Below, piece after piece: positions 1,991-19,883 of a stretch of DNA of 20,000 nt. Under the pieces are notes generated by a model. That model saw only the letters and a program-made list of their open reading frames with translations. It was not told the origin of the DNA and ran no database searches. This DNA comes from an uncultured virus (IMG/VR IMGVR_UViG_3300034989_000018) (Duplodnaviria; Heunggongvirae; Uroviricota; Caudoviricetes), in IMG/VR virus record IMGVR_UViG_3300034989_000018. One strand, 5' to 3'. Each line of letters starts with the position of its first letter. The stretch's first letter is position 1. A program made the translations under genes and the position numbers.

Positions 1991-2010
1991 TACTTATTGA
2001 ATTAAATTAA

Positions 2011-2070
2011 TTACATTTTTTCAAAAAAAGTGTTGACATTCTGTAAGAAGTATTATAGAATAATAATTGT
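2011..2070 (+). promoter_or_regulatory. Sigma70/sigmaA promoter with A/T-tract UP element, driving the SSB gene
   Basis: TTGACA (2033-2038), 17-bp spacer, TAGAAT (2056-2061); upstream TTTTTTCAAAAAAAG tract. Confidence 0.85.
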
Positions 2071-2113
2071 TCAAGAGAACACAAAAATACTAAAAATATA
2101 AAGGAGAATGAAA

Positions 2114-2857
2114 ATGGCTAAAAAAGACACAAAAATCAATTATATATTAAAAGGCGTGAACACTAACACAATACAATTTTCATGTTTGTTAGATGGTCAA
2201 TACAAATCAAAGAACGGTGATTTTGTAAGGGTGCCTAAAGATGATTATAAACAAGAGTTAAAGCACAATGACAAATTAGAACATAGGGCAGAAATAGTTA
2301 TTAATAATAAATTACCTGATGGTAGTATAAATCCTACCATAAGAGAAATTAAAAATATTATAATTGAACTATGGAAAGAACACAAGATTCCTAAAACTGG
2401 AATTAGCTGTTTTAGAGATGGAGATAAAAAAGCAAAAGAATTAGAAAGTAATGAAAAGAATGGAGATAGGCTTTTAGGTACATATTTTTTAAAAGTTCAT
2501 TCTAAATATGACATAAAATTTTATGACAAATATGTAAGACAATACAAACCAGAAGAAGATGCTGAATTAGATGGGAAATATTGCAATGCAGTATTACAGT
2601 TCAAAAATTATGACAATGGAACAAATATAGGTGTTACATGCTTTATAACTAAAATACAAGTATTTGACCAAAACCCTGCATTTGAATTTGATATAAGTGC
2701 AGAAGATGCCTTCGATGCTGTACAGTTTGGAGAAGATGAAAAAGAAGAAGTTTTACAAAAAGCTGTTGATTCTAAAACAACTAAGTTACCCACATGTGAA
2801 GATTTATTACATGGATTACCATTGGATGATGATGACGATGATTCACCATTTAACTAA
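2114..2857 (+). CDS. ssb: Phage single-stranded DNA-binding protein (DUF2815 / T7 gp2.5-like)
   Basis: FRDGD motif; strongly acidic C-tail ending DDDDDDSPFN with an aromatic residue; position between helicase and polymerase. The ATG at 2114 fits the AAGGAG spacing better than 2108. Confidence 0.75.
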   Translation: MAKKDTKINYILKGVNTNTIQFSCLLDGQYKSKNGDFVRVPKDDYKQELKHNDKLEHRAEIVINNKLPDGSINPTIREIKNIIIELWKEHKIPKTGISCFRDGDKKAKELESNEKNGDRLLGTYFLKVHSKYDIKFYDKYVRQYKPEEDAELDGKYCNAVLQFKNYDNGTNIGVTCFITKIQVFDQNPAFEFDISAEDAFDAVQFGEDEKEEVLQKAVDSKTTKLPTCEDLLHGLPLDDDDDDSPFN

Positions 2858-2881
2858 AGCATTTTAAATAATATAAAATAT

Positions 2882-2918
2882 AATACGTGGGTAACTTAGT
2901 TATCCATGTATTTATTTT
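2882..2918 (+). terminator. Intrinsic terminator after ssb
   Basis: AATACGTGGGTAAC-TTA-GTTATCCATGTATT stem with G-U pairs on the + strand, followed by TATTTT. Confidence 0.65.
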
Positions 2919-2943
2919 AATAAAAAATGGAGGTTTTTTAGAA

Positions 2944-3348
2944 ATGGATGAAAAAAAATATTTTTATGATGTTGATGGATTATTTAAATTAATGAAACCA
3001 TTTAAGACTTCTACAGATAACATTAAATCATTTGACAAAAAAGCAAATAATAGAAGTGCTTGTTTATTCATATCCATTTATCGTGGATACCCTAAGACAC
3101 AAATACGTGTAGACTTATGTAAAGAAAAAAATCATCATGGAGATTTAATAAGTATATCAGATATAATTTACAGGTCGTCAATACCCGGATTATACGAATA
3201 TTGTAATGAAACAATAGAGATAATTCAAAATTGGCAAAAAGGTCATAATCTTATTTTAGAAATAGATAAAGAACTTATTAAGATGGATATAGAAAATATA
3301 GAGAAAGTTAAAGAACTTATTGAGATGAATATCTTAATAAGATATTAA
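2944..3348 (+). CDS. Hypothetical protein
   Basis: GGAGG at 2929-2933 supports ATG 2944 rather than the GTG at 2887, which lies inside the terminator hairpin. Confidence 0.7.
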   Translation: MDEKKYFYDVDGLFKLMKPFKTSTDNIKSFDKKANNRSACLFISIYRGYPKTQIRVDLCKEKNHHGDLISISDIIYRSSIPGLYEYCNETIEIIQNWQKGHNLILEIDKELIKMDIENIEKVKELIEMNILIRY

Positions 3349-3363
3349 AGGAGTTGATATTAG

Positions 3364-6267: not shown

Positions 6268-6722
6268 ATAAAAAAGAGATTTATTGTTTAATAAGATATT
6301 TTGAATTAGAAGCAGGAGAAGATTTTTTTGACCAGAATGAAACTATAATACAGCCATACCAATTAATATTTTGGCTGCTTGGTAAAAAGTACATAACACC
6401 TAAACAATTTAATTTAGCAGTATCAGAAAAATTATTAGGTCTTAATGAAATATTTACAGGATATGAGAAAGAATATGCTATATTTCCTAATGGTGAGGCC
6501 GAAGAAATACCAGAAAAATATAAGTACTACATCATAGCTGAATTAATGCAAGATTGTGAAGTATATCAACATAGACTAAAAAAAATATTAGAAGAACATA
6601 ATTTAGTTATAAATGCTTTAGAAATACCAAATAAACAATGGCATGAATACAGAAATACAGTAAACGATGAATATAAAGAACTCAATAAACTTACAATAGA
6701 AAGGATTAAAAATAATGAATGA
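6264..6722 (+). CDS. Hypothetical protein
   Basis: AAGGAG RBS; ATGA overlap with the polymerase stop. Confidence 0.75.
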   Translation: MNKKEIYCLIRYFELEAGEDFFDQNETIIQPYQLIFWLLGKKYITPKQFNLAVSEKLLGLNEIFTGYEKEYAIFPNGEAEEIPEKYKYYIIAELMQDCEVYQHRLKKILEEHNLVINALEIPNKQWHEYRNTVNDEYKELNKLTIERIKNNE

Positions 6723-6990
6723 CATAGAAAAATATAAGAATAAAAAAGTCTATATAGTCTTTGATGAAGAAGGTAACAGGAAAGCCATTGGAAATGGTAA
6801 AAATATTTATATTTCTGAAGCTCGTATAAAAGGAAGTCTTACTCAACAAACAAAATATTACCTGCACGATGGAATTGAAGAACTTATAAAAAGATTTGGG
6901 AGATATACAATAAGGACCTATGAATTAAAAGATACTGGAGAAGAAATAACAATCGAAGATTTTATTAAAAATGAAATAAAAAAAAACTAA
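6715..6990 (+). CDS. Hypothetical protein
   Basis: Overlaps the previous stop; AAGGA RBS; co-oriented in the operon. Confidence 0.7.
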   Translation: MNDIEKYKNKKVYIVFDEEGNRKAIGNGKNIYISEARIKGSLTQQTKYYLHDGIEELIKRFGRYTIRTYELKDTGEEITIEDFIKNEIKKN

Positions 6991-7016
6991 ATCATATATG
7001 TAAAGGAGGATAAAAA

Positions 7017-7361
7017 ATGAACTATGATGAAGCAATATCAAAAAATATGGATGAATTAAACAATGTTTGTACAGAATTAGACAGACTTATGGGAAGAAAA
7101 AAACATCTACTAATTCAAACAGAAGAATATAAAAGAGAAAAGAATAAAAAAGGATTAATAATTACAGACCATAGCATTGTCAGTTACTTTAAAAGAGTAT
7201 TAGGATTCAATATCGAAGAAATAAAAGAGCGAATAATTAAACAAGATTTAAAGGGACGATACAAGGTAATGGGCGACGGTATTTTCGATCAGGGTGATTT
7301 CAGAGTCGTAGTAAAAAATAATTCTACCATAACTATTTTAAATAAGGAGATTAAAAAATAA
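7017..7361 (+). CDS. Hypothetical protein: N-terminal coiled coil plus ITDH..VSY..RV phage domain
   Basis: AAGGAGG RBS. ITDHSIVSYFKRVLG and the C-terminal VVVKNNSTITIL resemble the TDHAxxRYLER-type small phage domain (recalled, not searched). Confidence 0.7.
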   Translation: MNYDEAISKNMDELNNVCTELDRLMGRKKHLLIQTEEYKREKNKKGLIITDHSIVSYFKRVLGFNIEEIKERIIKQDLKGRYKVMGDGIFDQGDFRVVVKNNSTITILNKEIKK

Positions 7362-7378
7362 ACTGTAAATAAAAAAAA

Positions 7379-7416
7379 TAACATGACTGTTATTATTATA
7401 ACAGTCATGTTACAAT
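7379..7416. promoter_or_regulatory. Perfect 14-bp inverted repeat overlapping an extended -10 (operator and/or minus-strand terminator)
   Basis: TAACATGACTGTTA-TTATTA-TAACAGTCATGTTA (7379-7412); TG-n-TACAAT at 7408-7416; A-run on the left side. Confidence 0.55.
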
Positions 7417-7443
7417 ATAAGAAACTGTAAAGGAGTTAAGATA

Positions 7444-7833
7444 ATGAAAATTAGACAACTGACAAAAGACCATAAAAAATATTATGATGGTAGGTTGAAA
7501 TATATAGCACCTACAAGTAAGTATGAGTTTATAAACTTATTTGATGAGAGAACTGAAGTAGATTTTGAAGAAGTGAAAACCCAAATCATAAAGTTACGTG
7601 AGGAATTCTATGAATTGATGGCAGAACCTACATATACAATAGAATTTAGAAAAGAGCTGTTTGACTTAATAAATGCGGGAATCAATTTAGCTCATTGTCT
7701 TAGCTTGTATTATGATAAAAACCATAAATACAAGAATGATTATGAGATTTATAACCGTCATGTAAATAAAATAAACCGCAGACTATTAAACCCTGATTAT
7801 AACTGGGGAATTAAATTAGAAAAAGAGTATTGA
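7444..7833 (+). CDS. MazG-like all-alpha NTP pyrophosphohydrolase (putative)
   Basis: KLREEFYEL followed by KELFDL matches the EExxE...ExxD signature; AAGGAG RBS. Confidence 0.55.
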   Translation: MKIRQLTKDHKKYYDGRLKYIAPTSKYEFINLFDERTEVDFEEVKTQIIKLREEFYELMAEPTYTIEFRKELFDLINAGINLAHCLSLYYDKNHKYKNDYEIYNRHVNKINRRLLNPDYNWGIKLEKEY

Positions 7834-7899
7834 AATGTATCATTGGTGTATGATAGAAAAAAAGTGTCCAGATGATTGTAAAAGAGAGGATGATAAATA

Positions 7900-8193
7900 A
7901 TGGGAATTATAAAAAAATACGACTTACAATGTGATTTTTGCGAAAATAAATTAAGTGATGATTATAAAGAAGTACAAGAGTTTGATATGATAGGACAAAT
8001 TATGCATTTTGCGAAAGATAATTTATGGGACTATAAAAAATTGAAAGGAATTCAAAAACAAAAATGGAGATGTCCTGAATGTAGAACAAAAAAAGCAGGT
8101 GAAGAAAAAGAAGAAAAAGAAGAAGAAGAAATAAATTATTATTATAAGTTTACAAATTTATTTGAGGGTTCAGAATTTGAAAAAAAGGAGTGA
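7900..8193 (+). CDS. Zn-ribbon protein
   Basis: CDFC ... CPEC cysteine pairs; acidic tail; GAGGA RBS. Confidence 0.7.
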   Translation: MGIIKKYDLQCDFCENKLSDDYKEVQEFDMIGQIMHFAKDNLWDYKKLKGIQKQKWRCPECRTKKAGEEKEEKEEEEINYYYKFTNLFEGSEFEKKE

Positions 8194-8198
8194 TGTAA

Positions 8199-10136
8199 GT
8201 GTACAAAAAAAATAAATATGATAATAAAAGCCTACATTTAGGGCACGACTTATCAAAATTAATATTTAATTTAAATAAATTAATAAATAGGAAAATAAAA
8301 GCAATTGGATTTCCAATTGTCTTCTTTTTATTTTATATGATCCTAAATGAAAAAATAAAAAATTCGACTCTACATAATCATACACATTTTTTAATATTTA
8401 TGATAATACTTATTTATATTATTTGCTACATTACCTCGTTGATCTTGTTAAATGAGTACTATAATATAAAGTTTTTCCATGCAAAAGTAATAACAGGCAA
8501 TCAATATATAAACTTTACTAACTATACTAAATCTAATAAATATGAAAAAATATGGTTATTTACGACTAATGTACCTGTCAAATACTTGATTGCTAATAGT
8601 GATATAGTTGCTAATGTATTAAAAAATCATGTAGTAGAAATTAGACAACGTAAACATAGTTTTACTATGATAGAAATTATTACATCTAGCAAGGTAATTA
8701 ATTATAAGGAACTTGCTAAATTTGGAGATAGTAATATTATAAAATTACAATCAGCCTTTAAATTAAATGGTATAAATATATATAATTGCTCACAAGAACT
8801 TGAACAATACAAAGATACTATTTATTTTGATTGTGATGAAAAAAAATTAAGTTTACTAAAGGTCCTGGATGAAATTAAACACCTTACTGCTATAAGTAAC
8901 ATGACTATATATAGCAATCAGAACACCGACTTTAAGCTAATTATAGAAAAACCTGTCGGAATTATTGATTTTACTGAGTTGCTAATAGAAAGCGACTTAG
9001 ATAAAGAAACTAATATCTTGCTAGGTATAGATAACAATAATAGAGAAATAGCAATAAGTATTTTTGATATATATCATAGTATTGTAGCAGGTAGCACAGG
9101 GTATGGAAAAAGTAACCTAGGACACGTAATAATTAGTAGTTTATTAAAATCAGGTCTTGATATAGTAAATGTTTTACTAGACCCTAAAAAATCCGAACTT
9201 AAAAGGTATCGTGATATTCAAAATGTATTCTATTCAGGTGATAAAAAAGAAATAATTAAAATCCTCGAATTATTAGTAATTGAAATGGATAAAAGAAATA
9301 TCTTATTCGAACAGGATAAATTTATAAAAGATATAGATACATGGAATATAAAAATGAAACATAATAAATTACCTTATATTGTTATCTACATCGAAGAAAT
9401 AGCTGATTTGATTTTATCAACTGACAAAGAACTTAAAAAATCATTTGAAAACTCAATAATAAGACTTACTCAATTAGGTAGGTCTACAGGATTTAGATTA
9501 TTTCTTAGCACTCAATTTCCAAAAAAAGAAATCATTAATACAGTTATAAAAGCTAATTGCGCCACTAGATTTGGATTTGGTACAATTACTAACATAGAAT
9601 CAAGAGTAATTTTAGACGATGATAAATGTAAAGGACTTAACAAAGGACAAATGATTTTACAAACTAATGATATAGAAATAAAAATTAAAGTGCCTTTACT
9701 AAAAAATAATGTTATCGAAGATATTGTTTATTATCTTGAAGACTTGGATAAATTAGCTAAAAAGACCATGAGTATATATTTTATATCGAATATGTCAAAT
9801 ACCCTAAATAACTGTAAGTTAGACGTTAAAAAAGATATACCGAATATACCGAATATACCGAATAATATAAATAAAAAAGTTAATATAAATAAAGATAAAG
9901 TATTACTCATACGAAAATACAATATCGAAAATGAAAAAGATTTGTTAAATTTTTACATAGATTGTAATGAAAATAATCAAATATTATCAGTAGATAAAAC
10001 TTTAAAACATATAAATATAGGTAAAACTAAATTACAAGAGTTCAGAAAAAAATTAATAACAGATGAATATTTAATTGTGGATAATAAAAAAGTATTCTTA
10101 AATAAAAATAAATTAAAAAATTATAAAATATTATAA
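8199..10136 (+). CDS. FtsK/SpoIIIE-family P-loop ATPase with N-terminal membrane anchors and a putative C-terminal wHTH
   Basis: GTG start with AAGGAG; two hydrophobic segments; Walker A GSTGYGKS; LLDPK; Walker B-like IYIEEIADL; GRSTG arginine finger; STQ motif. Confidence 0.88.
   Translation: MYKKNKYDNKSLHLGHDLSKLIFNLNKLINRKIKAIGFPIVFFLFYMILNEKIKNSTLHNHTHFLIFMIILIYIICYITSLILLNEYYNIKFFHAKVITGNQYINFTNYTKSNKYEKIWLFTTNVPVKYLIANSDIVANVLKNHVVEIRQRKHSFTMIEIITSSKVINYKELAKFGDSNIIKLQSAFKLNGINIYNCSQELEQYKDTIYFDCDEKKLSLLKVLDEIKHLTAISNMTIYSNQNTDFKLIIEKPVGIIDFTELLIESDLDKETNILLGIDNNNREIAISIFDIYHSIVAGSTGYGKSNLGHVIISSLLKSGLDIVNVLLDPKKSELKRYRDIQNVFYSGDKKEIIKILELLVIEMDKRNILFEQDKFIKDIDTWNIKMKHNKLPYIVIYIEEIADLILSTDKELKKSFENSIIRLTQLGRSTGFRLFLSTQFPKKEIINTVIKANCATRFGFGTITNIESRVILDDDKCKGLNKGQMILQTNDIEIKIKVPLLKNNVIEDIVYYLEDLDKLAKKTMSIYFISNMSNTLNNCKLDVKKDIPNIPNIPNNINKKVNINKDKVLLIRKYNIENEKDLLNFYIDCNENNQILSVDKTLKHINIGKTKLQEFRKKLITDEYLIVDNKKVFLNKNKLKNYKIL
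9837..9863 (+). repeat. 3 x 9-bp tandem repeat ATACCGAAT (IPN x3) in the FtsK linker
   Basis: Direct reading of the sequence. Confidence 0.9.
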
Positions 10137-10179: not shown

Positions 10180-10207
10180 AAAAAAAAGACCGTCAATTGA
10201 CGGTCTT
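10180..10207 (-). terminator. Intrinsic terminator between the convergent transcription units
   Basis: Perfect palindrome AAGACCGTCAATTGACGGTCTT (10186-10207) with an A-run on its left, giving a U-tract for the - strand. Confidence 0.85.
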
Positions 10208-10313
10208 AAATATTTAATAAAAATTTAAAACACTGACATATTTTTTTAAATATTACCAACATTAATATAATAGGTAATATAAATATTGTTGCAAACATTA
10301 ATATAATTTTCAT
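10206..10313 (-). CDS. 35-aa hydrophobic peptide MKIILMFATIFILPIILMLVIFKKICQCFKFLLNI (not in the ORF track)
   Basis: ATGA overlap with the upstream stop; AAGGAG 8 nt upstream of the ATG; stop lies in the terminator arm; single TM helix followed by KK. Confidence 0.7.
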   Translation of the reverse strand: MKIILMFATIFILPIILMLVIFKKICQCFKFLLNI

Positions 10314-10819
10314 TGCATTTTCTCCTTTACTGATTTAATTTTACTGAAAATGCTTTCTTTATGTACTAAAGTCATAAATTTATTATAAAATGAATCTAAT
10401 TTATCATCATTAAACCCCATAGGATTTCTAACTTGATATTGAACGTCTATTTTATTAGACTCATTAACTGATAAATATTTTTCACAAATTCTGAAATCTT
10501 TAATATATATTGTTTCAAGATGTATTAAAGGTTTCTTTTTTTCAAATGGTGCATCATAATCTTTATTATCTACCATTTCAGTCCAAGAAAATTGTATCTT
10601 TTGTTCTTCCAGTAAATACAGATAATTATTTATATCATGTATTATATATTCTTTCATTTTTTTATTATCATATTCATACGATAACCAATCATATAATAAA
10701 GTTTTCAGTTCTTTAGAAGTCATCGATTTTATTTCTAAATTATCTCTTTCTTTTATAAAATCATTTAACTCTAATACGCATTGCACTAGAGTATCTTTAG
10801 ATATTTTGTTTAATAACAT
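10310..10819 (-). CDS. Hypothetical protein
   Basis: AGGAGG RBS; 169-aa ORF. Confidence 0.8.
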   Translation of the reverse strand: MLLNKISKDTLVQCVLELNDFIKERDNLEIKSMTSKELKTLLYDWLSYEYDNKKMKEYIIHDINNYLYLLEEQKIQFSWTEMVDNKDYDAPFEKKKPLIHLETIYIKDFRICEKYLSVNESNKIDVQYQVRNPMGFNDDKLDSFYNKFMTLVHKESIFSKIKSVKEKMQ

Positions 10820-10887
10820 TTCTTAATCCTCCTAAAATTTTAATATTTACTCTTTAATTTTTTTAAATTTATTTGCCTAAAACAATA

Positions 10888-11139
10888 TTATTTTTCCTCC
10901 TTATTTGCTTTCGATACTATCTTTTTTAAATGATTACATGTTTTCCATGCATCATTTAACTTCCAATCTTTTATTACTTCATAAGTATGTTTTATATAAT
11001 TACCTGTTCTTATATTTATGATAGCTTTCTCTTTATCATAATCACCATCATAAAAATTATCTGTTACTAAATAAATTGTAACACTATCATTTTTCTTTGT
11101 TATCCAGTCACCTGACTTTACTTTTTTTGTATAAGACAT
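10888..11139 (-). CDS. Hypothetical protein (MSYTKK start)
   Basis: AAGGAG precedes the ATG at 11139; the 11253 start in the ORF track overlaps the upstream gene and has no RBS. Confidence 0.7.
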   Translation of the reverse strand: MSYTKKVKSGDWITKKNDSVTIYLVTDNFYDGDYDKEKAIINIRTGNYIKHTYEVIKDWKLNDAWKTCNHLKKIVSKANKEEK

Positions 11140-11221
11140 TTTTATATCTCCTTTTAATTTTATTTTTCTATTAATATAGAAATGCTTATAAGGCGATTTT
11201 AACGCCAAATAAGCTAATATT

Positions 11222-11650
11222 TTATGTACCTGATACCATATCACATAAATCATTATATGCCTGTATATAATAATGATCTTTGTTTAAATCTTTATACTCT
11301 TTTAAATCTTTTTTATAGTCTATTATCTTTAAACAAATTTCTTCAAATGTTATTTGGTCAATTTCAATATCAACAGTCAGATAATAATTTCTTAAATTCT
11401 TTACTGTTGAAGTATCTAATAGTTGTAATGTATAATCACGTACTAAGTTATATATAGATAACTTAGTACTCTCTTGCTGCTTTTTATTACCTGTCAATAT
11501 TACTTGTATATCTTCTGTTACTTCAAATAGTTTCTTATGTTTATAATGACTATGGAGTTTGTCATAATAATTCTTGTAATTTGATTCTAAAATTGCACAT
11601 TCGTTATAAATTTTAAAATAATCTTCACCTTTCATTTTTATTTTACCCAT
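11222..11650 (-). CDS. Hypothetical protein
   Basis: GAGGAGGAG RBS; 142 aa. Confidence 0.75.
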   Translation of the reverse strand: MGKIKMKGEDYFKIYNECAILESNYKNYYDKLHSHYKHKKLFEVTEDIQVILTGNKKQQESTKLSIYNLVRDYTLQLLDTSTVKNLRNYYLTVDIEIDQITFEEICLKIIDYKKDLKEYKDLNKDHYYIQAYNDLCDMVSGT

Positions 11651-11690
11651 TATTCTTCTCCTCCTCTATTTTAGATAATGATGTTAACAT
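11643..11690 (-). CDS. 15-aa micro-ORF MLTSLSKIEEEKNNG (not in the ORF track)
   Basis: Preceded by the array-consensus AAGGAGAATAAAAAAC-ATG leader; stop overlaps the start of the next gene. Confidence 0.5.
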   Translation of the reverse strand: MLTSLSKIEEEKNNG

Positions 11691-11791
11691 GTTTTTTATT
11701 CTCCTTTTCCTTTTTTTATAATTAATCATATATAAGATATTGTGAATATCTTTATATATGATTGAAATAACTTAGCAAGCTTTTAAACTTA

Positions 11792-12130
11792 CTAAGCTAA
11801 TAAATTAAACTGTTTGTCAAAATCTAGATCACTTAAAGAAATTAATTCAAATTCCAGCTTCTTTAGTTGCCTTAAATTATATGTTTTACTAGTATCAATC
11901 TTAAAGCCAAAATCAAGCCGATTTAACAAATTATTAATTGATTCTAGTATTTTATAGTATTTATATATTTCTTTAAGTTCTGTGTTTAATTTTAGCCTTG
12001 ATTCATATATTAAAGTTAATAAAGATTTTGACTTAAAATTAATAATAGAACCATTTAAAACCATTTGTATATGAGTTTTATCAAGTTCTATTATTGTTAG
12101 AATTTTTAATATTAATTCTACTCTCATCAT
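11792..12130 (-). CDS. Hypothetical protein
   Basis: AAGGTG RBS; 112 aa. Confidence 0.7.
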   Translation of the reverse strand: MMRVELILKILTIIELDKTHIQMVLNGSIINFKSKSLLTLIYESRLKLNTELKEIYKYYKILESINNLLNRLDFGFKIDTSKTYNLRQLKKLEFELISLSDLDFDKQFNLLA

Positions 12131-12159
12131 AAAAACACCTTTTAATATGATTTTTATTT

Positions 12160-12444
12160 CTAAATTATTTCTAAACCTGAATAAGATATTAAATAAACTT
12201 TATATTTATTAAAACTTCTTATAGGTGTATTATAATCCCATTCAAAATTTAAGAACTTATTTAAATTATTAAAATTTTCTTTAAATATTTTATACATATT
12301 TTTTTCTTCCATCATTTCAAAACTTAAATAATAGTCATTTGTATGTATTGAAATATTATGTATAAATGTAAAATCATTAAGTGTATTTTTTATTTTATTC
12401 ATATCTTCAAAAACTTTTTCTTTACTAATTTGTGTCTTACTCAT
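12160..12444 (-). CDS. Hypothetical protein
   Basis: GGAGGAGG RBS. Confidence 0.75.
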   Translation of the reverse strand: MSKTQISKEKVFEDMNKIKNTLNDFTFIHNISIHTNDYYLSFEMMEEKNMYKIFKENFNNLNKFLNFEWDYNTPIRSFNKYKVYLISYSGLEII

Positions 12445-12463
12445 TGTTTTTAGTCCTCCTCCA

Positions 12464-12796
12464 TTATTTTATTTCGATATATAATTTATTATCAAGTGAA
12501 TATCTCCATGCATATTCATTGCAGATGTAAGAAAAATAAGCAATACCAATTTCCCAAGATTCATGAGAAAACATATTACTATTTGTCCATTTGTCTCTAG
12601 TGTTGTAGTAGTTCAAATGATCTATTAATGTCATTTTAGCATCAATATGATTTTCACATCTGTAATAATTTTCAAACATTTTTATTTCAAAGTGTTCAAA
12701 AATTTTTTCATCAATTTTTTTTAAGCATGTTCCAAAATGCTCAGATGATAGTATTTCTACTATCATACCGTTTTTCAATTGTTCTATTAATCTCAT
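12464..12796 (-). CDS. Hypothetical protein
   Basis: AAGGAGATAAAAAA leader. Confidence 0.8.
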   Translation of the reverse strand: MRLIEQLKNGMIVEILSSEHFGTCLKKIDEKIFEHFEIKMFENYYRCENHIDAKMTLIDHLNYYNTRDKWTNSNMFSHESWEIGIAYFSYICNEYAWRYSLDNKLYIEIK

Positions 12797-12874
12797 TGTT
12801 TTTTATCTCCTTTTTATTTTTTATTTTTTTATTGAAACAAGTGATCACGCTTTGACACGTGATTACCTTAGATA

Positions 12875-13501
12875 CTAGATTATCAAATAATTATTTTCCA
12901 ATTGTGCATATCTTTCATGTAAATCATCTAGATTGTACAATTTTTCATTTAATACTTCAGAATCTTTAATTAAACGCCATCCTAATGGATGACTTTTTTC
13001 ATTGTCAATTCTTTTGATTTGATAACCAAAAGAATTGAATCTTTTTTCTAAATTATCAATATGATCATTAGCAGTTATGTAAAAACTAGGATGTTGAATT
13101 TCAAATGATTCTTCGATTAATTCTATGTCTATTAATCCATATTGCCAATTTTCATTTTGTTGTTTAAAATACTCTCTTATCTCTCTCTTTGAAAGATTTA
13201 AAGTATCTTTAACATTATTCACTGTTTCTACTTCATAATTTGTAAAATCTATAAAGTAGTCAATTCCTCCTGTATTCCCTAATTTAATTCCTTTTTGTCC
13301 TAGTTTATAATTTAATTTTTTTGTAGAAATTAAATAATAAACATCCCAAATGTTTCTTCCTCTGTTATTTCTTCTAGTTGTGTATGCTTCTAACCTAATT
13401 AAATAGGCTAGAATGTTTTTTGTTTTTTTGCCTTTAACAGCATATATTATGCTATTAGAAGTTTCCTTATTGTTTTTTATTGATGTTATTTTTTCAATCA
13501 T
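12875..13501 (-). CDS. Hypothetical protein
   Basis: AAGGAGATAAAAAA leader; 208 aa. Confidence 0.8.
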   Translation of the reverse strand: MIEKITSIKNNKETSNSIIYAVKGKKTKNILAYLIRLEAYTTRRNNRGRNIWDVYYLISTKKLNYKLGQKGIKLGNTGGIDYFIDFTNYEVETVNNVKDTLNLSKREIREYFKQQNENWQYGLIDIELIEESFEIQHPSFYITANDHIDNLEKRFNSFGYQIKRIDNEKSHPLGWRLIKDSEVLNEKLYNLDDLHERYAQLENNYLII

Positions 13502-13567
13502 TATTTTTTATCTCCTTTTTTTTATTGAAATACCCTTGTAAACTTTGATATTCACAAGGATAAAAAT

Positions 13568-13882
13568 TTAAAAATCTTTGTGGTAATTATCGAGGATATG
13601 AGATATTTTAAATTTAAAGTCTACTGTTATATAAACTATATATTTAAAATAATCATAGTCCTCCATATATTCATTCTTATAAAAGTGATGTTTATGATAG
13701 TGTTCTTTTATTATAAGAACATTATCATCTTTAAATATAATGATATTATCTTTATATTCATATTCACTATATTCTATTGGTTTTAATTCTGGCATATCTG
13801 CCTTATCTTCAACAATTACAATATCATCAATTGATTCTTTTAAATTAATTGATTTTAATATTTCCTTTAATTTAATTTTCAT
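13568..13882 (-). CDS. Hypothetical protein
   Basis: AGGGAGAATGAAAA leader. Confidence 0.78.
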   Translation of the reverse strand: MKIKLKEILKSINLKESIDDIVIVEDKADMPELKPIEYSEYEYKDNIIIFKDDNVLIIKEHYHKHHFYKNEYMEDYDYFKYIVYITVDFKFKISHILDNYHKDF

Positions 13883-13967
13883 TATTTTTCATTCTCCCTT
13901 TTATTTTTATTTTTATTGAAAAAAATTACTGCAATGTGATTTACAGTAATTTTGGTTACATTAGTAT

Positions 13968-14768
13968 TTAAGAGTATTTAAGTTCTAATAATTCATCTCG
14001 AAAATAGATTGAAACATTCTTTCTACCATGTCGTATTACCTTAGTATGATTATATTTCATGGTGGACAATAGATTCATTAAACCTGTTGTACTTTGTTTT
14101 AAATTAGTACCACCTATTTTAACGAACTTCTTATCACTAAGAAATTGCAATGATAACAAGTATTCTTGTATCATTTCATCATAATTATCTTTGCCATATT
14201 GCATATAGTTTAAAACTTCAAGTATATTCTTGATATTAAACCAATCTGAATCATGCAAAAAATGATTGTTTACGATTTTTAAGTTTTCTAACTCAAAGCT
14301 AAAATGAGTTGAAAACTCATTATAATTTTGATAACAATTAATCTTGTTATCAAAAATATTCTCAAAATCATAATCAAATTTTAACATTAATGAATTTTTG
14401 TAGGCTACAAATAATTCATTGAATAACATGTCGTATTGACCATAACCACCATTTTTAAAGTCATAATTATTAATATCAATTTTGTATTTAGACAATATCC
14501 ATTCAAATCTATTGATGAATACTTTTAATGTACTATCAGTTAAAAGCGGTTTGTCTAAAGAATTATCTAAGTCTTGCCTTAAGTCCCAGACTATATAATC
14601 TCTTATTAATTCTTTAAAACTCAATCTATCAGACTTTGATTCAATATAATAATTAGTTGAATTAACCTCAACATAATCAACCATTATACAATCATTTAAT
14701 CGTCGTCCTAAATGTCTACCATTTTTAAAACCTATATTTACATTATTTGTTAGTTTTAATTCATTCAT
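13968..14768 (-). CDS. Hypothetical protein
   Basis: Consensus AAGGAGAATAAAA leader; 266 aa. Confidence 0.82.
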   Translation of the reverse strand: MNELKLTNNVNIGFKNGRHLGRRLNDCIMVDYVEVNSTNYYIESKSDRLSFKELIRDYIVWDLRQDLDNSLDKPLLTDSTLKVFINRFEWILSKYKIDINNYDFKNGGYGQYDMLFNELFVAYKNSLMLKFDYDFENIFDNKINCYQNYNEFSTHFSFELENLKIVNNHFLHDSDWFNIKNILEVLNYMQYGKDNYDEMIQEYLLSLQFLSDKKFVKIGGTNLKQSTTGLMNLLSTMKYNHTKVIRHGRKNVSIYFRDELLELKYS

Positions 14769-14849
14769 TTTTTTTTATTCTCCTTTTATTTTTATTTTTT
14801 ATTGAAAAAGGTAGTCACAACTTGACTTGTAAATACCTTAGATTATTAA

Positions 14850-15080
14850 TTATCTTATTTTTTCAAAAATTGAAAAAAAAGATTTTTCAAGATTTTTATT
14901 GGCAAATTCTAAACCATCTATATCTTCTATATCTTCTACCCCTATCCAGGTATAAGAATTAATTTCCCAATCTGCCAAACCTTCACAAAAATTTTCTTCT
15001 TCTTCATAAGTAAGAAATATATTTTCAATAATGTTACTTCCATTAAATGTTATTACTGTTAATTTAGGATTCATATTCAT
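14850..15080 (-). CDS. Small acidic hypothetical protein
   Basis: Consensus leader; rich in E and D. Confidence 0.78.
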   Translation of the reverse strand: MNMNPKLTVITFNGSNIIENIFLTYEEEENFCEGLADWEINSYTWIGVEDIEDIDGLEFANKNLEKSFFSIFEKIR

Positions 15081-15135
15081 TGTTTTTATTCTCCTTTTTT
15101 ATTTTTATTTTTTAGAAAGGGACTTACATCCCTTT

Positions 15136-15573
15136 CTAAATTGGTTCTTCGTCGCTATAGTAATAATCCAGTTGTTCTTTAATATTGTTTATATCAATGA
15201 TTTGTTTTTGACTATATAAAATATAGTCAAACAAAGCATCCTCTTCTGTTTCTGTCTCTTCTTTATTAATCACCAAATTTAAATCACTGATGTCGAAATT
15301 CATATCGAAATCATAAATTATAATGCGTTGATTATCTATTGCTTGGTTTCTTTCATTAGTGGACAATGATTCTGTTTCCAATTGTCCAGTTTTTAAATTT
15401 AAAATTGCATAACCATGCTTGTATCCTTTGTTAAAGCCTTCCCAAGCTTTTTTCAAGATTTCTATTTCATCTAATTGATTAATCAAAGACAATATATCGT
15501 CCTTGGTTAATACCTCAATTCTTTCATTTTGTCCTAGCCCGGTTCCTTTTGCTTTTATTGTTGTTTTTTTCAT
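15136..15573 (-). CDS. Hypothetical protein (acidic C-terminal half)
   Basis: Consensus leader; TAG stop embedded in the downstream hairpin arm. Confidence 0.8.
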   Translation of the reverse strand: MKKTTIKAKGTGLGQNERIEVLTKDDILSLINQLDEIEILKKAWEGFNKGYKHGYAILNLKTGQLETESLSTNERNQAIDNQRIIIYDFDMNFDISDLNLVINKEETETEEDALFDYILYSQKQIIDINNIKEQLDYYYSDEEPI

Positions 15574-15657
15574 CTTTTTTTATTCTCCTTTTTATTTTTA
15601 AGTCCAGTGGACTATTAGTAAAAAGTAATCACGCTTTGACACGTGATCACTTGAGAT

Positions 15658-15990
15658 TTAATTAGTTTCAATCAATAAAAAACCTTCGTCCTTGACGAAG
15701 TATTTTAAACAAGGTATTCCTTTGTCTTCAATCTGTTTTCCGTTCTTATAGTGACCTAAAAATACTAGGTCTTCTTTTAATCCATTAACTAATCGATATC
15801 TTAAGATACCTATTGTATTAATTTGATACATGTATTCAGTATCATTTACTATATGATACCTATTAAATAAGCAATTCATATGATCATATATATTGCTTTC
15901 TAATGTACTGTTATCCAAGTATTCCTTAAATACTTTGGATAATTTCATAATCTTTTTGTTTGTTAAATTATTAATATCTTTTTTTGTCAT
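15658..15990 (-). CDS. Hypothetical protein
   Basis: Consensus leader. Confidence 0.8.
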   Translation of the reverse strand: MTKKDINNLTNKKIMKLSKVFKEYLDNSTLESNIYDHMNCLFNRYHIVNDTEYMYQINTIGILRYRLVNGLKEDLVFLGHYKNGKQIEDKGIPCLKYFVKDEGFLLIETN

Positions 15991-16059
15991 CTTTTTTTAT
16001 TCTCCTTTTTTATTTTTAGTAATCAATAACCAAGCTTTAACACCTGGTTATCAAAAAAT

Positions 16060-16539
16060 CTATACTACTATCCTTTTTTTATTTAATTTATCATTTTCAT
16101 ACTTTTTACTACCATATGTCGACCGTATTTGTTCCATTGACCATTCTTTTCTATTTCTAGAAAAGCACCAATCTGGCCTATAATACCATTGTTTCTTTCT
16201 TGCAGCCCATCTAAATTTTAATGACTTCAAAAGGTCTTTTATTGGCCTTGTATTTCCTGATAGCCATATATACCAATTGCAAATTTCGATTTCTATATCA
16301 TTAAATTTAATCAATTGGGTTACGATATCTTTAAATATTTCAGCTTCATATACTTGACTATCTGCTTTTTTAGTTGACTTTTTATCTTTTAAGTCCTTAA
16401 TAGCCCTGTCATATTGACTATTAATTTCTTTGATAATACTATCATCAACATTTTTATTGATATCTGGATGATATTGTTTGACCAGTTTCCTATAAATATT
16501 TTTGATATCATCGATATTTGTACAATCTTTAAAATTCAT
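16060..16539 (-). CDS. J-domain (DnaJ-like) protein
   Basis: IKNIYRKLVKQYHPD...IKEINSQY is a J-domain with an intact HPD motif; it is followed by a W-rich C-terminal domain (WLSGNT..IKDLLKSLKFRWAARKKQWYY). Confidence 0.88.
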   Translation of the reverse strand: MNFKDCTNIDDIKNIYRKLVKQYHPDINKNVDDSIIKEINSQYDRAIKDLKDKKSTKKADSQVYEAEIFKDIVTQLIKFNDIEIEICNWYIWLSGNTRPIKDLLKSLKFRWAARKKQWYYRPDWCFSRNRKEWSMEQIRSTYGSKKYENDKLNKKRIVV

Positions 16540-16620
16540 ATTTTTTATTCTCCTTGTTTAAAGTCACTAGGACTATTATTTAAAAAAGCAATCACGCTTT
16601 GACACGTGATTACTTGTAAC

Positions 16621-16881
16621 TTATATTTTTTTAATATATATCCATCTGTCGGGTATCTCTGTTTCAACCACGGGACTTATCCCGTGTTTGTCAAAATTTA
16701 CATTTTCATGGATTTTAGTAATTTTATATCCATCAATTTGTTTCGTATTAAAGCCTTTTGAAAGTTCCGTTATTATTTCTTCCAGGGCATTTTCAGGATT
16801 ATAGAACCCTTGCCCATTTAAATATGAAAGAAAAGAACTTTCATATCCTAAATTACATATTACTATTTCGTATTTTTTCAT
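16621..16881 (-). CDS. Hypothetical protein
   Basis: Consensus leader. Confidence 0.78.
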   Translation of the reverse strand: MKKYEIVICNLGYESSFLSYLNGQGFYNPENALEEIITELSKGFNTKQIDGYKITKIHENVNFDKHGISPVVETEIPDRWIYIKKI

Positions 16882-16988
16882 AATTTTTTTATTCTCCTTT
16901 TTTTTTAAGTCCAGTGGACTATTATTTAAAAAAGATATTCACAAAATGACTTATGAATATCCTGGTAATTTATTTATGATAATACTGA

Positions 16989-17417
16989 TCAAAAAAATCC
17001 TTTCATATTATTTTTGCATTTTTTTGAAATGCTATTAAATTTATTAAATTCAATCTTAAATAATAAATTATTATGTAAATTCTTGATGTTTCGCATTGTA
17101 TCAAGATAATAACTTTTAAGCTCTTGTTGATAAAAATGTTTAAAACTATTATAGAGTAAATTTAATTCACAATAATTTAATTGATCTATATCTTTATGAT
17201 TTTTTCTAATTTTCATAACATGAAAATTAATGTAATAATGATTTTTTTTCTTTTTATCAAGTACGCTAAAAAAATTGACTTTTTCTTTATTACAATAGCA
17301 TATTGTAATTTTATTTGTATCGATGCATTTTAGTACATCTTTCAATGACATTAATCCATTTTCAAAATCCATTTGATTTAATATGGATTTTTGTATTTGT
17401 TTTAATGTTTTTTTCAT
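16989..17417 (-). CDS. Hypothetical protein, paralog of 18439-18891
   Basis: Shares MKKTLKQIQK.ILNQ.DFEN, NHYYIN, YQQE and LHNNL.FKIEFNK with that gene. Confidence 0.85.
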   Translation of the reverse strand: MKKTLKQIQKSILNQMDFENGLMSLKDVLKCIDTNKITICYCNKEKVNFFSVLDKKKKNHYYINFHVMKIRKNHKDIDQLNYCELNLLYNSFKHFYQQELKSYYLDTMRNIKNLHNNLLFKIEFNKFNSISKKCKNNMKGFF

Positions 17418-17515
17418 AATTTTTTTTATTCTCCTTTTAATTTTTATTTATTAAAAAAGATATTCACAAAATAACTTATGAATATCCTGGTATATTTATT
17501 ACTTTTGAATTTGAA

Positions 17516-17890
17516 TCATCTATCCATTAATATTAATTCAATCTTTTGCTGTATCTCAATATCTTTATCAAGATCATTATTTCTTTCTTCATCCCTTTTT
17601 AATTGATGTATTGATTCATTATCTGGGATATTTAATACACCCTCTAAAGTACTTAATAAAGGCATTAAAGCGTGAATTATTGACGCACTATCATTTACTC
17701 GTTCTTGATAAAGAGCTTTCAAAATAAACCTTTTTCCCTCATTTTTATTGAGTACTTCCAAACATTCTTTCATTTTATAAAAACTTGTCCTATAAAGCTC
17801 TTTTGATTCTTTATAAGAATCAAGTAATCTTAAATATCCCTTATTATCTATTGTTTTCTCTTCTTTAATTATTCTTTTTGGTGTTTTCAT
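17516..17890 (-). CDS. Hypothetical protein
   Basis: Consensus leader. Confidence 0.8.
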   Translation of the reverse strand: MKTPKRIIKEEKTIDNKGYLRLLDSYKESKELYRTSFYKMKECLEVLNKNEGKRFILKALYQERVNDSASIIHALMPLLSTLEGVLNIPDNESIHQLKRDEERNNDLDKDIEIQQKIELILMDR

Positions 17891-17973
17891 TTTTATTCTC
17901 CTTTTTTTTTAAGTCCAGTGGACTAATAAAAGGTAATACAAATTTGACTCTATATTACCCTAAGCAAAAACTT

Positions 17974-18360
17974 TTAATGATATTTCATTATGTACAAACA
18001 ACGATTTTTTAAATAATTCGTTATATAATATTCAAGTTCACAAAATGTTAAATCATAATTTTCAAATGTTTTTAAAAATTCATATTGAATATATATCCAT
18101 GACTTAACATATAATTTCTTGCCATTTATAGGATTTTTATAATCTATTGCATACATTGCCTTTAAATATTTACTATTATTATCATTAGTATCATATTTTA
18201 TTTGATTAGTCGGTATTACTTGACTATGGTTCAAATTGCTTTTGTATACTTTATATCCATTAGATATAAAAGAATTTTTGTATCTTCTTATATTATCACC
18301 ATCTGAAATATCAAATAACATTATTGTTTTCTTTGTTCTTAATTTATTTATTGTTTTCAT
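17974..18360 (-). CDS. Hypothetical protein
   Basis: Consensus leader. Confidence 0.8.
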   Translation of the reverse strand: MKTINKLRTKKTIMLFDISDGDNIRRYKNSFISNGYKVYKSNLNHSQVIPTNQIKYDTNDNNSKYLKAMYAIDYKNPINGKKLYVKSWIYIQYEFLKTFENYDLTFCELEYYITNYLKNRCLYIMKYH

Positions 18361-18438
18361 TTTTATTCTCCTTTATTTTAAGTCCAGTGGACTAGTAAAA
18401 AGCAATCACGCTTTGACACGTGATTACCTGGTATTAGT

Positions 18439-18891
18439 TTATTTATAATAATACATATTGTCTCTACATTTTTTAGATACATTTGGATATTTATTAAATT
18501 CAATCTTGAATGATAGATTATTATGTAATCTATCTAAATATTTCATATTATTTAGATAATAATATTTCATTTCCTGTTGATATAAGTGATTAAAACAATT
18601 GTAAATTAAGTTTAACTCTTGATAACTTAACTCGATATCTTCATTATGATTTTTTTTAACTTTCATATTTTGAAGATTAATATAATAATGATTACATGTT
18701 TTCTTATCATATACACTAAAATAATTTATATCTTTATATCTATTGCCTATCCTTAGTCTATATTTTTTACAATAAGCTATCTTAACTTTATTTGTATTAA
18801 TATACTTAATATCTTCTAAGTCCATTAATTCATTTTCAAAATCTATTTGGTTTAAAATACCTTTTTGTATTTGTTTTAATGTTTTTTTCAT
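18439..18891 (-). CDS. Hypothetical protein, paralog of 16989-17417
   Basis: End-to-end similarity, roughly half identical by eye. Confidence 0.85.
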   Translation of the reverse strand: MKKTLKQIQKGILNQIDFENELMDLEDIKYINTNKVKIAYCKKYRLRIGNRYKDINYFSVYDKKTCNHYYINLQNMKVKKNHNEDIELSYQELNLIYNCFNHLYQQEMKYYYLNNMKYLDRLHNNLSFKIEFNKYPNVSKKCRDNMYYYK

Positions 18892-18959
18892 ATTTTTTAT
18901 TCTCCTTGTTTTAAGTCACTAGGACTATTAGTAAAAAGCAATCACGCTTTGACACGTGA

Positions 18960-19142
18960 TTACTTGAATATATATACCGGGAAGCCTATCAATCTTAAAG
19001 CTTCTTTAGTAGTCTTTTGATATCTGGGGTATATCTCTATACCGTCAATTGATTGATTAAAATAATAATTACCCGATTTATATTTTTTTATGATGTAACT
19101 CTTATCGGGGTTATACTTATCAACTAAATATAATTTACTCAT
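18960..19142 (-). CDS. Small hypothetical protein
   Basis: AGGAGG RBS; TAA stop embedded in the first array hairpin. Confidence 0.75.
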   Translation of the reverse strand: MSKLYLVDKYNPDKSYIIKKYKSGNYYFNQSIDGIEIYPRYQKTTKEALRLIGFPVYIFK

Positions 19143-19153
19143 CTAATAACCTC

Positions 19154-19378
19154 CTATACTTTTATTATGACTGGCTTTTTACCGGTCAAATTAATTGTAT
19201 TCTCTATAGATGATAATAAAGCAGTATAATACATTGATTTGTGAAAACTCAAGTATTTGTTATTTTTACCGTAAATTACCTTTATTGTATTTCTGCCAAA
19301 TACCATCAATACAGGTATTTTAAAAACTCTATATCTTAATATCATCGCTTTTTGTATCATTCTTTTAATTTTAATCAT
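19154..19378 (-). CDS. Small basic hypothetical protein, first gene of the array
   Basis: Consensus AAGGAGAATAAAAAAC-ATG leader; rich in K and R. Confidence 0.75.
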   Translation of the reverse strand: MIKIKRMIQKAMILRYRVFKIPVLMVFGRNTIKVIYGKNNKYLSFHKSMYYTALLSSIENTINLTGKKPVIIKV

Positions 19379-19419
19379 GTTTTTTATTCTCCTTTAATTT
19401 TTATAGATTATTATTATTT

Positions 19420-19826
19420 AATAGGTATAAAGGAATTGAACCTTTATTAAAGCACCAGCTACCACGATTTTTTTACATTCTTATGTCTGCTAGGGACTAT
19501 CAAAAACCAAATTAACCCGTTAATCCCTCATTATTATGTATTTTAGGAGAAAAATAAAAATTTACTACTACTAAATAAGTTTGATAGACATTGCCTGAGT
19601 TGGCCGAGAATTTGCCTTGTCATCCATATGATATGAATGACTAGAGTTTATTTAGTACTTGCTAGTTGTGTATCCACGATATATTGCTATGTATTCACCA
19701 GATGATCATCTGTCTTGTGGTTCACGCCCATTAGTCGTGGCCTACAAGTAAAGAGTATATTTTTTGTGACCGATATTTACTTTTCAATGTACTGAATGCT
19801 TTGCGTCAATGTATTGCCCCTTGACA
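19420..19826 (-). ncRNA. Putative structured non-coding leader RNA (~400 nt)
   Basis: No RBS-led ORF; visibly more G+C than the flanks; several nested helices; a GGTTCAATTCC T-loop-like hairpin at its 3' end; lies directly downstream of the strong promoter. Confidence 0.6.
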
Positions 19827-19883
19827 ATTATTATTATATTACACTAATTACACAATGTCAATACTTTTTTTGAAAAAATGTAA
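19825..19883 (-). promoter_or_regulatory. Perfect-consensus sigma70/sigmaA early promoter with UP element
   Basis: On the - strand: TTGACA (19861-19856), 17 bp, TATAAT (19838-19833); upstream TTTTTTCAAAAAAAG tract. Confidence 0.92.

Follow-up and report, generated by a model that had tools for sequence, protein, structure and literature searches.

The stretch of DNA analysed here (the window) comprises 20,000 nucleotides (nt) of an uncultured virus of the Caudoviricetes (IMG/VR record IMGVR_UViG_3300034989_000018), and it holds a block of 21 co-oriented open reading frames (ORFs) on the minus strand, running from 19378 to 10206. The encoded proteins are 35-266 amino acids (aa) long and were grouped into families A-T. 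A sigma-70 promoter, TTGACA-17-TATAAT, is located ahead of the block at 19833..19861 on the minus strand and agrees with the consensus at 12/12 positions. No other site in the window scores 12/12; within the block, the next best sites on the minus strand reach 10/12, and the number of promoter-like sites in the whole window, 172, is at chance level (173.3 +/- 11.2 in shuffled sequences). The preliminary description of this DNA had named this site as the only clear minus-strand consensus promoter, followed by co-oriented genes, and both statements hold. Between the promoter and the first gene lies an untranslated structured leader, most gene junctions carry a copy of one hairpin family, and the block ends at a terminator of a different type.

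A near-identical copy (95-99%) of the window was found on a 70,288-bp contig, C5, of the 2.0-Mb genome G001, referred to below as the carrier genome. The DNA comparison covers three diverged lineages, namely the window with G001, the two IMG/VR contigs G015 and G016, which have one block sequence in common (~81% identity to the window), and one metagenome contig, L033. The L033 block is partial, and the block end is seen in the window, G001 and G015. Promoter, leader, first gene (ORF1) and intergenic cassettes are alike in all three lineages.

Using a covariance model, we have identified 13 copies of the hairpin family in the window, each at a gene junction of the block and on the minus strand. 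The stem has 12-13 bp, two bases of the hexaloop are invariant, and a U-rich tail follows. In the direction of transcription, the copies are located at 18935..18966 (loop GTCAAA, T5, with the ORF2 stop codon inside the stem), 18399..18430 (GTCAAA, T5), 17930..17961 (GTCAAA, T4), 17457..17488 (GTTATT, T6), 16932..16963 (GTCATT, T6), 16585..16616 (GTCAAA, T6), 16023..16054 (GTTAAA, no T run), 15622..15653 (GTCAAA, T5), 14808..14839 (GTCAAG, T5), 13922..13953 (ATCACA, T7), 13531..13562 (ATCAAA, T3), 12838..12869 (GTCAAA, interrupted T tail) and 11768..11799 (TTAAAA, T3, with a stop codon inside the stem). A 12-bp hairpin at 15111..15140 on the same strand does not belong to the family (GGGA/TCCC core, loop TGTAAG, followed by an A run and not a T run), and further unrelated hairpins are present at ~11763-11724 and 11214-11165. 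The earlier figure of about 14 hairpins is fair.

Of the 34 distinct hairpins in the family alignment, the window supplies 13, G015 supplies 10 and L033 supplies 8, while 3 are specific to G001 (one later-found G001 copy was left out). All 13 stem pairs change on both sides among these copies. Paired cells make up 95.5% of the 442 stem cells, as against 61.0% in shuffles, none of which reaches the observed value (0/500), and 38-46% after a shift of the 3' partner by 1-3 columns. G-U pairs occupy 73 of the 442 cells (16.5%; summed from the per-pair table). Since these pairs would be mismatches on the other strand, the fold exists on the sense strand only, which argues for RNA. Every stem position varies, whereas the loop has U at position 17 and A at position 19 in 34/34 copies; columns 35 and 36, just after the stem, are also T in 34/34. 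The two invariant loop bases point to a putative common partner of all copies.

The family is restricted to this block. In the 2.0-Mb G001 genome the model has 12 matches, all within C5:18447-24880 on the minus strand, which is the block, and it finds no copy in the other ~60 kb of the ~70-kb phage. The family is therefore not a repeat of the host, and it is not the form that terminators of the host usually take. Rfam contains neither the hairpin family nor the leader. Two other roles considered for the hairpins were rejected. As antisense promoters, the loops would supply a -35-like hexamer on the plus strand, but a -10 partner is present at only 2 sites, and the loop variants and G-U pairs favour a sense RNA. 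As for a boxA carried by the cassettes as a family feature, the likeness to the host box is limited to copies with one stem type.

Sites resembling intrinsic terminators are more frequent than expected by chance, the whole window having 17 of them versus 3.4 +/- 1.8 in shuffles. The folding energies (dG) of the 34 hairpins have a median of -14 kcal/mol and range from -8.3 to -17.7. In 33/34 copies, 4-6 of the 8 nt from column 33 are T, the sense strand as a whole being 31.7% T. The longest T run is at least 4 in 22/34 copies and 2-3 in 12/34. Within the window, 9/13 copies have runs of 4-7 and the other four have 2-3, in agreement with the previous claim of T4-T7 tails in most copies. The stem starts at most 10 nt past the stop codon in 23/34 copies, and the stop codon lies inside the stem in 4; one stop-to-stem distance, 347, is an artefact of an uncalled ORF.

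The block ends, as had been described, at a different terminator, a canonical intrinsic one at 10186..10207 (minus strand) with a 9-bp stem containing 5 GC pairs, a 4-nt loop and T8 (dG -13.8 kcal/mol). It does not belong to the family and overlaps the stop codon of the last ORF. In both lineages with the block end seen, the terminal terminators are of a type other than the internal hairpins. The last ORF (10206-10313, minus strand) encodes a hydrophobic peptide of 35 aa, overlaps gene S at its start and has its stop codon within the stem of the terminal terminator. A perfect 16-bp hairpin with T8, set to stop minus-strand transcription, is found at 7378-7413, in an intergenic gap of the plus-strand replication operon 2.8 kb beyond the terminal terminator, where it could catch antisense transcription that reads through from the block.

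Most junctions share one layout, which comprises a stop codon, the family hairpin, a T-rich tail, a mini-hairpin or an A-rich stretch, AAAGGAGAATAAAAA and ATG. The AAAGGAGAATAAAAA-ATG initiation region is standard for nearly all of the 21 ORFs. The element between the family hairpin and the Shine-Dalgarno (SD) sequence is either a mini-hairpin (AGTCC, 3-6 nt, GGACT, TAAAA) or an A-rich stretch of the TTTCAATAAAAA type. The exact mini-hairpin AGTCC-ACT-GGACT is found on the minus strand at 15601..15613, 16908-16920, 17912-17924 and 18381-18393, and these 4 sites amount to 8 two-strand matches where 0.15 are expected; variants lie at 18914-18926 and 16562-16574 on the same strand. The mini-hairpin or a variant occurs in 17/34 cassettes, 10-15 nt before the SD, with a fixed AGTCC/GGACT stem and a free loop of 3-6 nt.

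Promoters are not enriched in the cassettes. When the highest-scoring sigma-70 site with its end 4-60 nt ahead of the SD is taken for each gene, the mean is 8.37/12, compared with 8.41/12 at 1000 random positions of the block. Gene O alone reaches 10/12 upstream of its SD (site 12495-12466). In the shortest cassettes the spacer from hairpin to AAAGGAG is 12-15 nt, so that there is no room for a promoter in them. On these scores, there is no promoter per gene. Promoters read by a phage RNA polymerase, or hairpin promoters of the N4 type, were considered and rejected, because no polymerase was found among the scanned proteins and the loop length of the mini-hairpin varies.

The leader extends over ~447 nt (19379..19826, minus strand), with 454 nt from the -10 box to the ATG of ORF1. 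A structured leader of ~400 nt had been proposed earlier, and the leader is indeed conserved, with compensatory changes. Between the window and G015 it is identical in 88% of columns, as against ~81% in the flanking genes. The consensus fold of the three lineages has 104 predicted pairs, 9 of them with compensatory changes; the single-sequence fold is unexceptional (z = -1.28). Three features stand out within this fold. The first is a boxA-like core, CTCTTTA, at 19749..19755 (minus strand), which lies in a stretch that is invariant in the three lineages and is predicted to be single-stranded, directly 5' of a covarying hairpin. The rRNA leader of G001 holds TGCTCTTTAAAAA after a hairpin, with an identical CTCTTTA core, and the 16S-23S spacer holds GTTCTTTAACAAA; we take both to be boxA of the rRNA operon. 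Beyond the core, the phage box matches the box of the rRNA leader at 8/12 positions. The chance of one CTCTTTA on the sense strand of the leader is ~0.06, and the heptamer is found 4 times on both strands of the window versus 5.3 expected, so the reading of this site as a boxA is a lead only. The second feature is TCTCCT at 19545..19550 (minus strand), the complement of the operon's standard SD. It is invariant and is predicted to pair with the SD of ORF1 ~160 nt downstream (consensus positions 278-283 with 440-445), a pairing that shows no covariation since both sides are invariant. The third is a 7-bp hairpin with a T-loop-like heptaloop, GGTTCAATTCC, at 19427..19447 (minus strand), at the 3' end of the leader.

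No Rfam family matches the leader. With the whole window, Rfam at E <= 1 gave one chance snoRNA match only. With the leader alone at E <= 10, it gave an 11-nt T-loop (tmRNA model, E = 1.5) and a 16-nt hairpin only, with the antitermination RNAs that Rfam holds left unchecked. A tRNA or tmRNA at the 3' end of the leader was rejected, as ARAGORN found neither in the leader and the Rfam tmRNA model covers just 11 nt. A small leader peptide was also discarded, because the 14-codon ATG frame of the window has no ATG in G015 and the 454 nt hold no conserved ORF. The same applies to a kissing interaction between the hairpin loops and an invariant TTTGAT of the leader, since a complement of 6 nt is expected by chance (an estimate) in 450 nt.

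Two small ORFs precede the first family hairpin, as previously reported. ORF1 (family A; 19154..19378, minus strand) encodes a protein of 74 aa with pI 10.6 and is the first gene in four of the four blocks examined. ORF2 (family B; 18960..19142, minus strand) encodes 60 aa with pI 9.6, follows after a gap of 11 nt and is absent in the G015 lineage. In a large protein collection, relatives of ORF1 form 12 clusters only, with 67-100% identity, and ORF1 is confined to this phage group. Its AF2 model (pLDDT 85.5) is a compact alpha/beta fold made of a helix, three strands, a helix and a strand. Foldseek found no match for the model in the PDB at E <= 0.001, a protein atlas yielded nothing usable, and the sequence has no match in Pfam, PHROGs or NCBIfam.

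Family searches took in 20 of the 21 block ORFs, the 35-aa last ORF being left out. At E <= 0.001, 19/20 have no PHROGs match. The exception is a 159-aa protein (16060-16539, minus strand) with an N-terminal J domain (Pfam DnaJ, E = 8e-6; phrog_15863, E = 4e-36), the sole block gene with a named domain. It is present in three of the four blocks and may recruit a host chaperone. Apart from it, Pfam at E <= 0.05 gave no match for these ORFs, ORF1 and ORF2 included, bar unrelated weak ones. No antiterminator family of Pfam or NCBIfam was found among the 20, including PF17362, the N family and NusG/KOW, and the block proteins gave no match to an RNA-binding or nuclease domain. A cold-shock-like match of gene F (16621-16881, minus strand, 86 aa) to CspD is far below threshold (E = 4e-4, 20 bits versus a cut-off of ~150). 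Cold-shock proteins melt RNA hairpins. Gene F is absent from the G015 block and is not seen in the partial L033 block.

Clustering of the block proteins gives the order A B C D E C F G H I J K L M N O P Q R S T for the window, A B D E C F G H I J Z K L N O P d Q R f S T for G001, A U G E V H D K L Y a b P Q c S e for G015 and A B U D H L W K X for the partial L033 block. Family A is first in four of four blocks, and the last gene shared by the three blocks with the end seen is S, while the order between them varies by lineage. Two genes of the window, C150 (18439-18891) and M208 (12875-13501), are lacking in G001. Each is bounded by family hairpins, and the cassette sequence that flanks them aligns twice in G001. 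These comparisons indicate that genes are shuffled between relatives at the cassette borders. The two C genes of the window, 18439-18891 (150 aa) and 16989-17417 (142 aa), both on the minus strand, are paralogous and form a repeat pair with ~72% DNA identity, of which G001 keeps one.

The window is AT-rich (GC 20-29%) and the phage is siphovirus-like. Its plus strand at 335-10136 codes for an SNF2 helicase, an Enc34-type single-stranded DNA-binding (SSB) protein, an FtsK/SpoIIIE-like protein and a 967-aa protein that matches the PHROG of DNA polymerases. On the G001 contig past the right end of the window, the plus strand codes for terminase, portal, protease, major head protein and tape measure, and an amidase, a Cro/C1-type regulator and a D5-like primase are found farther along. 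Given the plus-strand gene content on either side, the minus-strand block is flanked by the replication module on one side and the packaging module on the other, and its transcription runs opposite to that of the two modules. The phage proteins scanned, drawn from the window and the G001 contig and including 30 further proteins and the PHROGs scans, yielded no RNA polymerase, sigma factor or integrase. The carrier genome itself codes for Rho and RNase E/G, and RNase Y was not found in it.

The block promoter, with ~60 nt of conserved flanks, is repeated on the plus strand of the G001 contig at C5 8446-8522, 26712-26773 and 60659-60696, and one of these three copies corresponds to window 2033-2061 (plus strand). 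By sequence, the block promoter is thus one member of a phage promoter family. At least 4 copies exist in the phage, located before different operons (SSB gene, packaging side, after the primase). Their flanks contain a T/A-rich upstream part, and an inverted TTGACA...TGTCAA pair brackets the core; the repeated flanks suggest a common operator or UP element. A promoter-family copy is also located at a junction at which the two near-identical phages differ, since G001 has a gene for a Rha-family regulator between the SNF2 helicase and SSB genes (C5 7690-8445) that the window does not have (1990-2108). In the relatives, the region that would lie beyond window position 20000, upstream of the promoter, is divergent. 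In L033 (1500-1870) it contains large inverted and direct repeats with a AGCGTGTAAA-type motif, bordered by long A/T runs, and two weak matches of the hairpin model (E = 0.01). Possible roles of these repeats are those of an origin, of a packaging site or of an operator array.

Relatives of the block are few in the collections searched. Megablast against phage records found none. Exact hairpin and leader patterns matched only two IMG/VR contigs, both with the same block sequence, and among 14 genomes of the carrier's family only G001 has a match. The leader pattern gave 0 matches in metagenome contigs, and the cassette pattern and ORF1 relatives gave 0 matches in genome contigs. The cassette pattern has matches at 7 loci in metagenome contigs. 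L033 and L036 overlap and come from a single contig, the true relative; the other 5 (L034, L035, L037-L039) have a single match of the cassette pattern each.

We favour, with rather less than even confidence, a reading in which the block is a promoterless array of cassettes similar to the PeSL cassettes of T4-type phages, with the phage-specific hairpins acting as serial partial terminators and insulators. It builds on the anatomy of the block, the covariation of the stems, the strand and block specificity of the hairpins, the promoter-free cassettes and the shuffling at their borders, to which it would add termination, leakiness, an expression gradient and a ribosome effect. The host RNA polymerase would transcribe the block as one long polycistronic operon from the single consensus promoter. 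Each border would provide punctuation at the RNA level, with a hairpin after the stop codon, a mini-hairpin in half of the copies and an A-rich, very strong SD region. The family hairpins would serve as leaky intrinsic terminators and 3'-end protectors that insulate adjacent cassettes, and their leakiness would produce nested transcripts and an expression gradient from promoter-proximal to promoter-distal genes. Because the stem is so near the stop codon, it is conceivable that a ribosome on that codon masks the 5' arm and lowers termination further. The conserved borders could in addition offer patches of homology for gene gain, loss and reordering, as at PeSL cassettes.

Several observations weigh against this reading. 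With thirteen terminators in series, hardly any polymerase would reach the conserved distal genes unless the individual stops are very weak, and the energies of the internal hairpins match that of the terminal terminator, so that some aid to read-through may be needed. The T run is just 2-3 in 12/34 copies and the tails differ between orthologous junctions, and therefore termination may not be the selected function. The stems have only 2-5 GC pairs each. Simple leakiness also fails to account for the invariant loop bases U17 and A19 beside a variable stem, and for an operon that opens with a conserved leader of 447 nt and ORF1. The invariant loop is fitted by no simple model, and this motivates both a protein-binding explanation and a variant of read-through addressed to the loop, which are weighed below.

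A dedicated antitermination system, as proposed in the preliminary description, is a serious rival, though less likely than not. According to this explanation, the hairpins are efficient, early RNA would stop at hairpin 1 as a message of the leader and ORF1, with or without ORF2, and the leader in cis and/or the basic ORF1 protein would then permit read-through. The architecture fits, with one promoter, 13 hairpins, a leader and ORF1 ahead of the first hairpin in four of four blocks and ORF1 always first. The leader is conserved above its neighbours (88% versus ~81%) with 9 compensatory pairs, and it carries the single-stranded CTCTTTA beside a covarying hairpin with the same core as TGCTCTTTAAAAA in the rRNA leader of the carrier. 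The internal hairpins equal the terminal terminator in energy, and the terminal terminators are of another type. With Rho encoded in the carrier genome, a long untranslated leader would need protection. A precedent is described for conAn of pLS20, with a ~456-nt leader and components encoded at the first gene (PMC8191782, PMC13401043).

The molecular side of the antitermination proposal is less well matched. The 20 block ORFs searched contain no known antiterminator family of Pfam or NCBIfam (PF17362 and NusG/KOW included), the compact alpha/beta fold modelled for ORF1 has no structural relatives, one lineage lacks ORF2, the leader belongs to no Rfam family and CTCTTTA has a chance probability of ~0.06. 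Processive systems are described as acting whatever the terminator sequence (PMC10325885), so that a conserved loop is not predicted, and the terminal terminator has a short stem (9 bp), unlike the long-stem terminator that resists conAn in the same account. A variant in which a factor reads the loop and overrides only the family hairpins would explain the invariant loop, and the unrelated terminal terminator would still stop transcription.

It is unlikely, in our estimate, that the hairpins are not terminators at all and serve instead as loop-specific sites of binding or processing for a phage or host protein. In the processing version, cleavage of the RNA would fall within the AU-rich spacer, and the 3' end upstream would be shielded by the family hairpin and the 5' end downstream by the mini-hairpin; alternatively, translation or stability of all cassettes would be controlled jointly. 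An invariant loop on a freely covarying stem is the pattern of a recognised loop, and the mini-hairpin shows the opposite pattern, with a fixed stem and a free loop of 3-6 nt in 17/34 cassettes. The U run is not conserved between orthologous junctions, and with RNase E/G and no RNase Y found in the carrier genome, cutting of AU-rich spacers by an RNase E-type enzyme is conceivable. However, no RNA-binding or nuclease domain is found among the block proteins, the cold-shock-like match of gene F being sub-threshold (E = 4e-4), and the invariant TT after the stem together with the T enrichment is what a terminator needs. The stems of 12-13 bp are short for RNase III. The earlier alternative of RNase III sites, as in T7, is thus a misfit.

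It is very improbable that each cassette has its own promoter, as in a true PeSL-type terminator-promoter, with the hairpins merely ending the upstream unit: the T4-type PeSL design, with the same association with ORFan genes (PMC2839356), and the TTTACT ... TAAAAA that can be read around the mini-hairpin in some copies, along with the 10/12 site before gene O (12495-12466), stand against background scores upstream of the SD (8.37 versus 8.41), a hexamer spacing that would shift with the loop length of the mini-hairpin, spacers of 12-15 nt that are too small, and the fact that neither the PHROGs scans nor the scan of 30 further phage proteins turned up an RNA polymerase or sigma factor of the phage. 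Equally improbable are hairpins or cruciforms at the DNA level that would serve a recombinase, primase or replication, their position in the transcript being incidental; genes are shuffled at the cassettes, and the PeSL authors speculated on a stem-loop-specific recombination protein (PMC2839356), but 16.5% of stem cells are G-U(T) on the sense strand only, the hairpins lie directly after the stop codon and before the SD, and no recombinase or integrase domain was found in the phage proteins scanned.

A further proposal, quite unlikely as a whole, is that the leader RNA, with its T-loop hairpin, anti-SD box and boxA-like core, would together with the basic ORF1 protein license the polymerase past hairpins with the U-N-A hexaloop only, so that the 13 internal stops are overridden as a set and the terminal one still ends the operon. 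If this is true, loop-addressed read-through would be a sequence-selective counterpart to sequence-blind processive antitermination, and the problem of ending the operon would be solved differently from the long-stem resistant terminator of conAn. A loop that marks regulated read-through would be a new way to run a multi-terminator operon and could supply a compact, portable set of insulators and terminators for synthetic operons. Arrays of early, small ORFan genes house host-takeover and counter-defence functions of phages, and their expression and remodelling are known for few model phages. The block provides a clean natural case, in which promoterless cassettes are joined by a standard RNA element, with every stem pair covarying, that is confined to one operon.

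The block can be compared with several known systems. The substrate of RNase III is a long, irregular duplex of about two helical turns, from which the hairpins here differ by their 12-13-bp stems if set beside the RNase III sites of T7 and SPO1. For LoaP and other NusG paralogues (NGN/KOW), no Pfam or NCBIfam match was found among the 20 block ORFs. In lambda, antitermination works through N and nut, in which boxB is a short stem with a pentaloop, and rRNA operons use boxA. The block resembles these systems in the promoter-proximal, single-stranded CTCTTTA core beside a leader hairpin, in the small basic protein encoded first and in the serial putative terminators downstream. It differs in that no match to the N family was found and ORF1 is predicted to be folded, in that the hairpins have 12-13 bp and a hexaloop and recur at junction after junction and not once per operon, and in that the box match is short, with its chance of ~0.06. 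Integron arrays have one promoter at the head and promoterless co-oriented cassettes, each of which carries an imperfect palindrome at its 3' end. The head promoter, the promoterless cassettes of one orientation, the 3' hairpin and a content that varies between relatives are all shared by the block, but no integrase was found among the scanned proteins, and its 32-nt, G-U-paired and U-tailed hairpins are unlike attC. Shuffling here is more likely to proceed by homologous recombination than in the integron mode.

The conAn system of pLS20 has a 456-nt leader and antitermination components encoded at the first gene (PMC13401043, PMC8191782). ConAn1 carries Pfam PF17362 (pXO2-34), and the conAn RNA element is described as following the first gene (PMC8191782); by the published account, the system acts whatever the terminator sequence and is stopped by an extraordinarily long stem (PMC10325885). 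Likeness is seen in the long operon with (here putative) internal terminators, the leader of ~450 nt, the small first genes before the first terminator and a large RNA as the proposed effector. The block is borne by a phage and not a plasmid, and encodes no PF17362 protein. Its RNA element would lie in the leader and not after the first gene; since only 11 nt separate ORF1 and ORF2, an RNA like conAn2, with its GC-rich box and SL1, is not present behind the first gene in the window. Furthermore, its internal hairpins share a loop, and its end terminator is short-stemmed (9 bp).

A close likeness in layout is to the PeSL cassettes of T4-type phages, described as short intergenic sequences with a terminator-like stem-loop, a strong sigma-70 promoter and an SD (Arbiol et al. 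2010, PMC2839356; Comeau et al. 2014, PMC4122927). In both cases, conserved intergenic cassettes with a stem-loop and an SD are set in a block of small ORFan genes, and indels and reordering occur at the cassettes. Every PeSL has a strong sigma-70 promoter, whereas the cassettes here have none, and one upstream promoter with a 447-nt leader serves the whole array. The PeSL stem, with its G-run and C-run, is reported as relatively conserved (PMC2839356), whereas in the block the loop is fixed and the stem variable. Should the hairpins be no more than leaky stops, the block would carry the PeSL concept, in which regulatory cassettes act as linkers for recombination, over to a siphovirus and to a promoter-free form.

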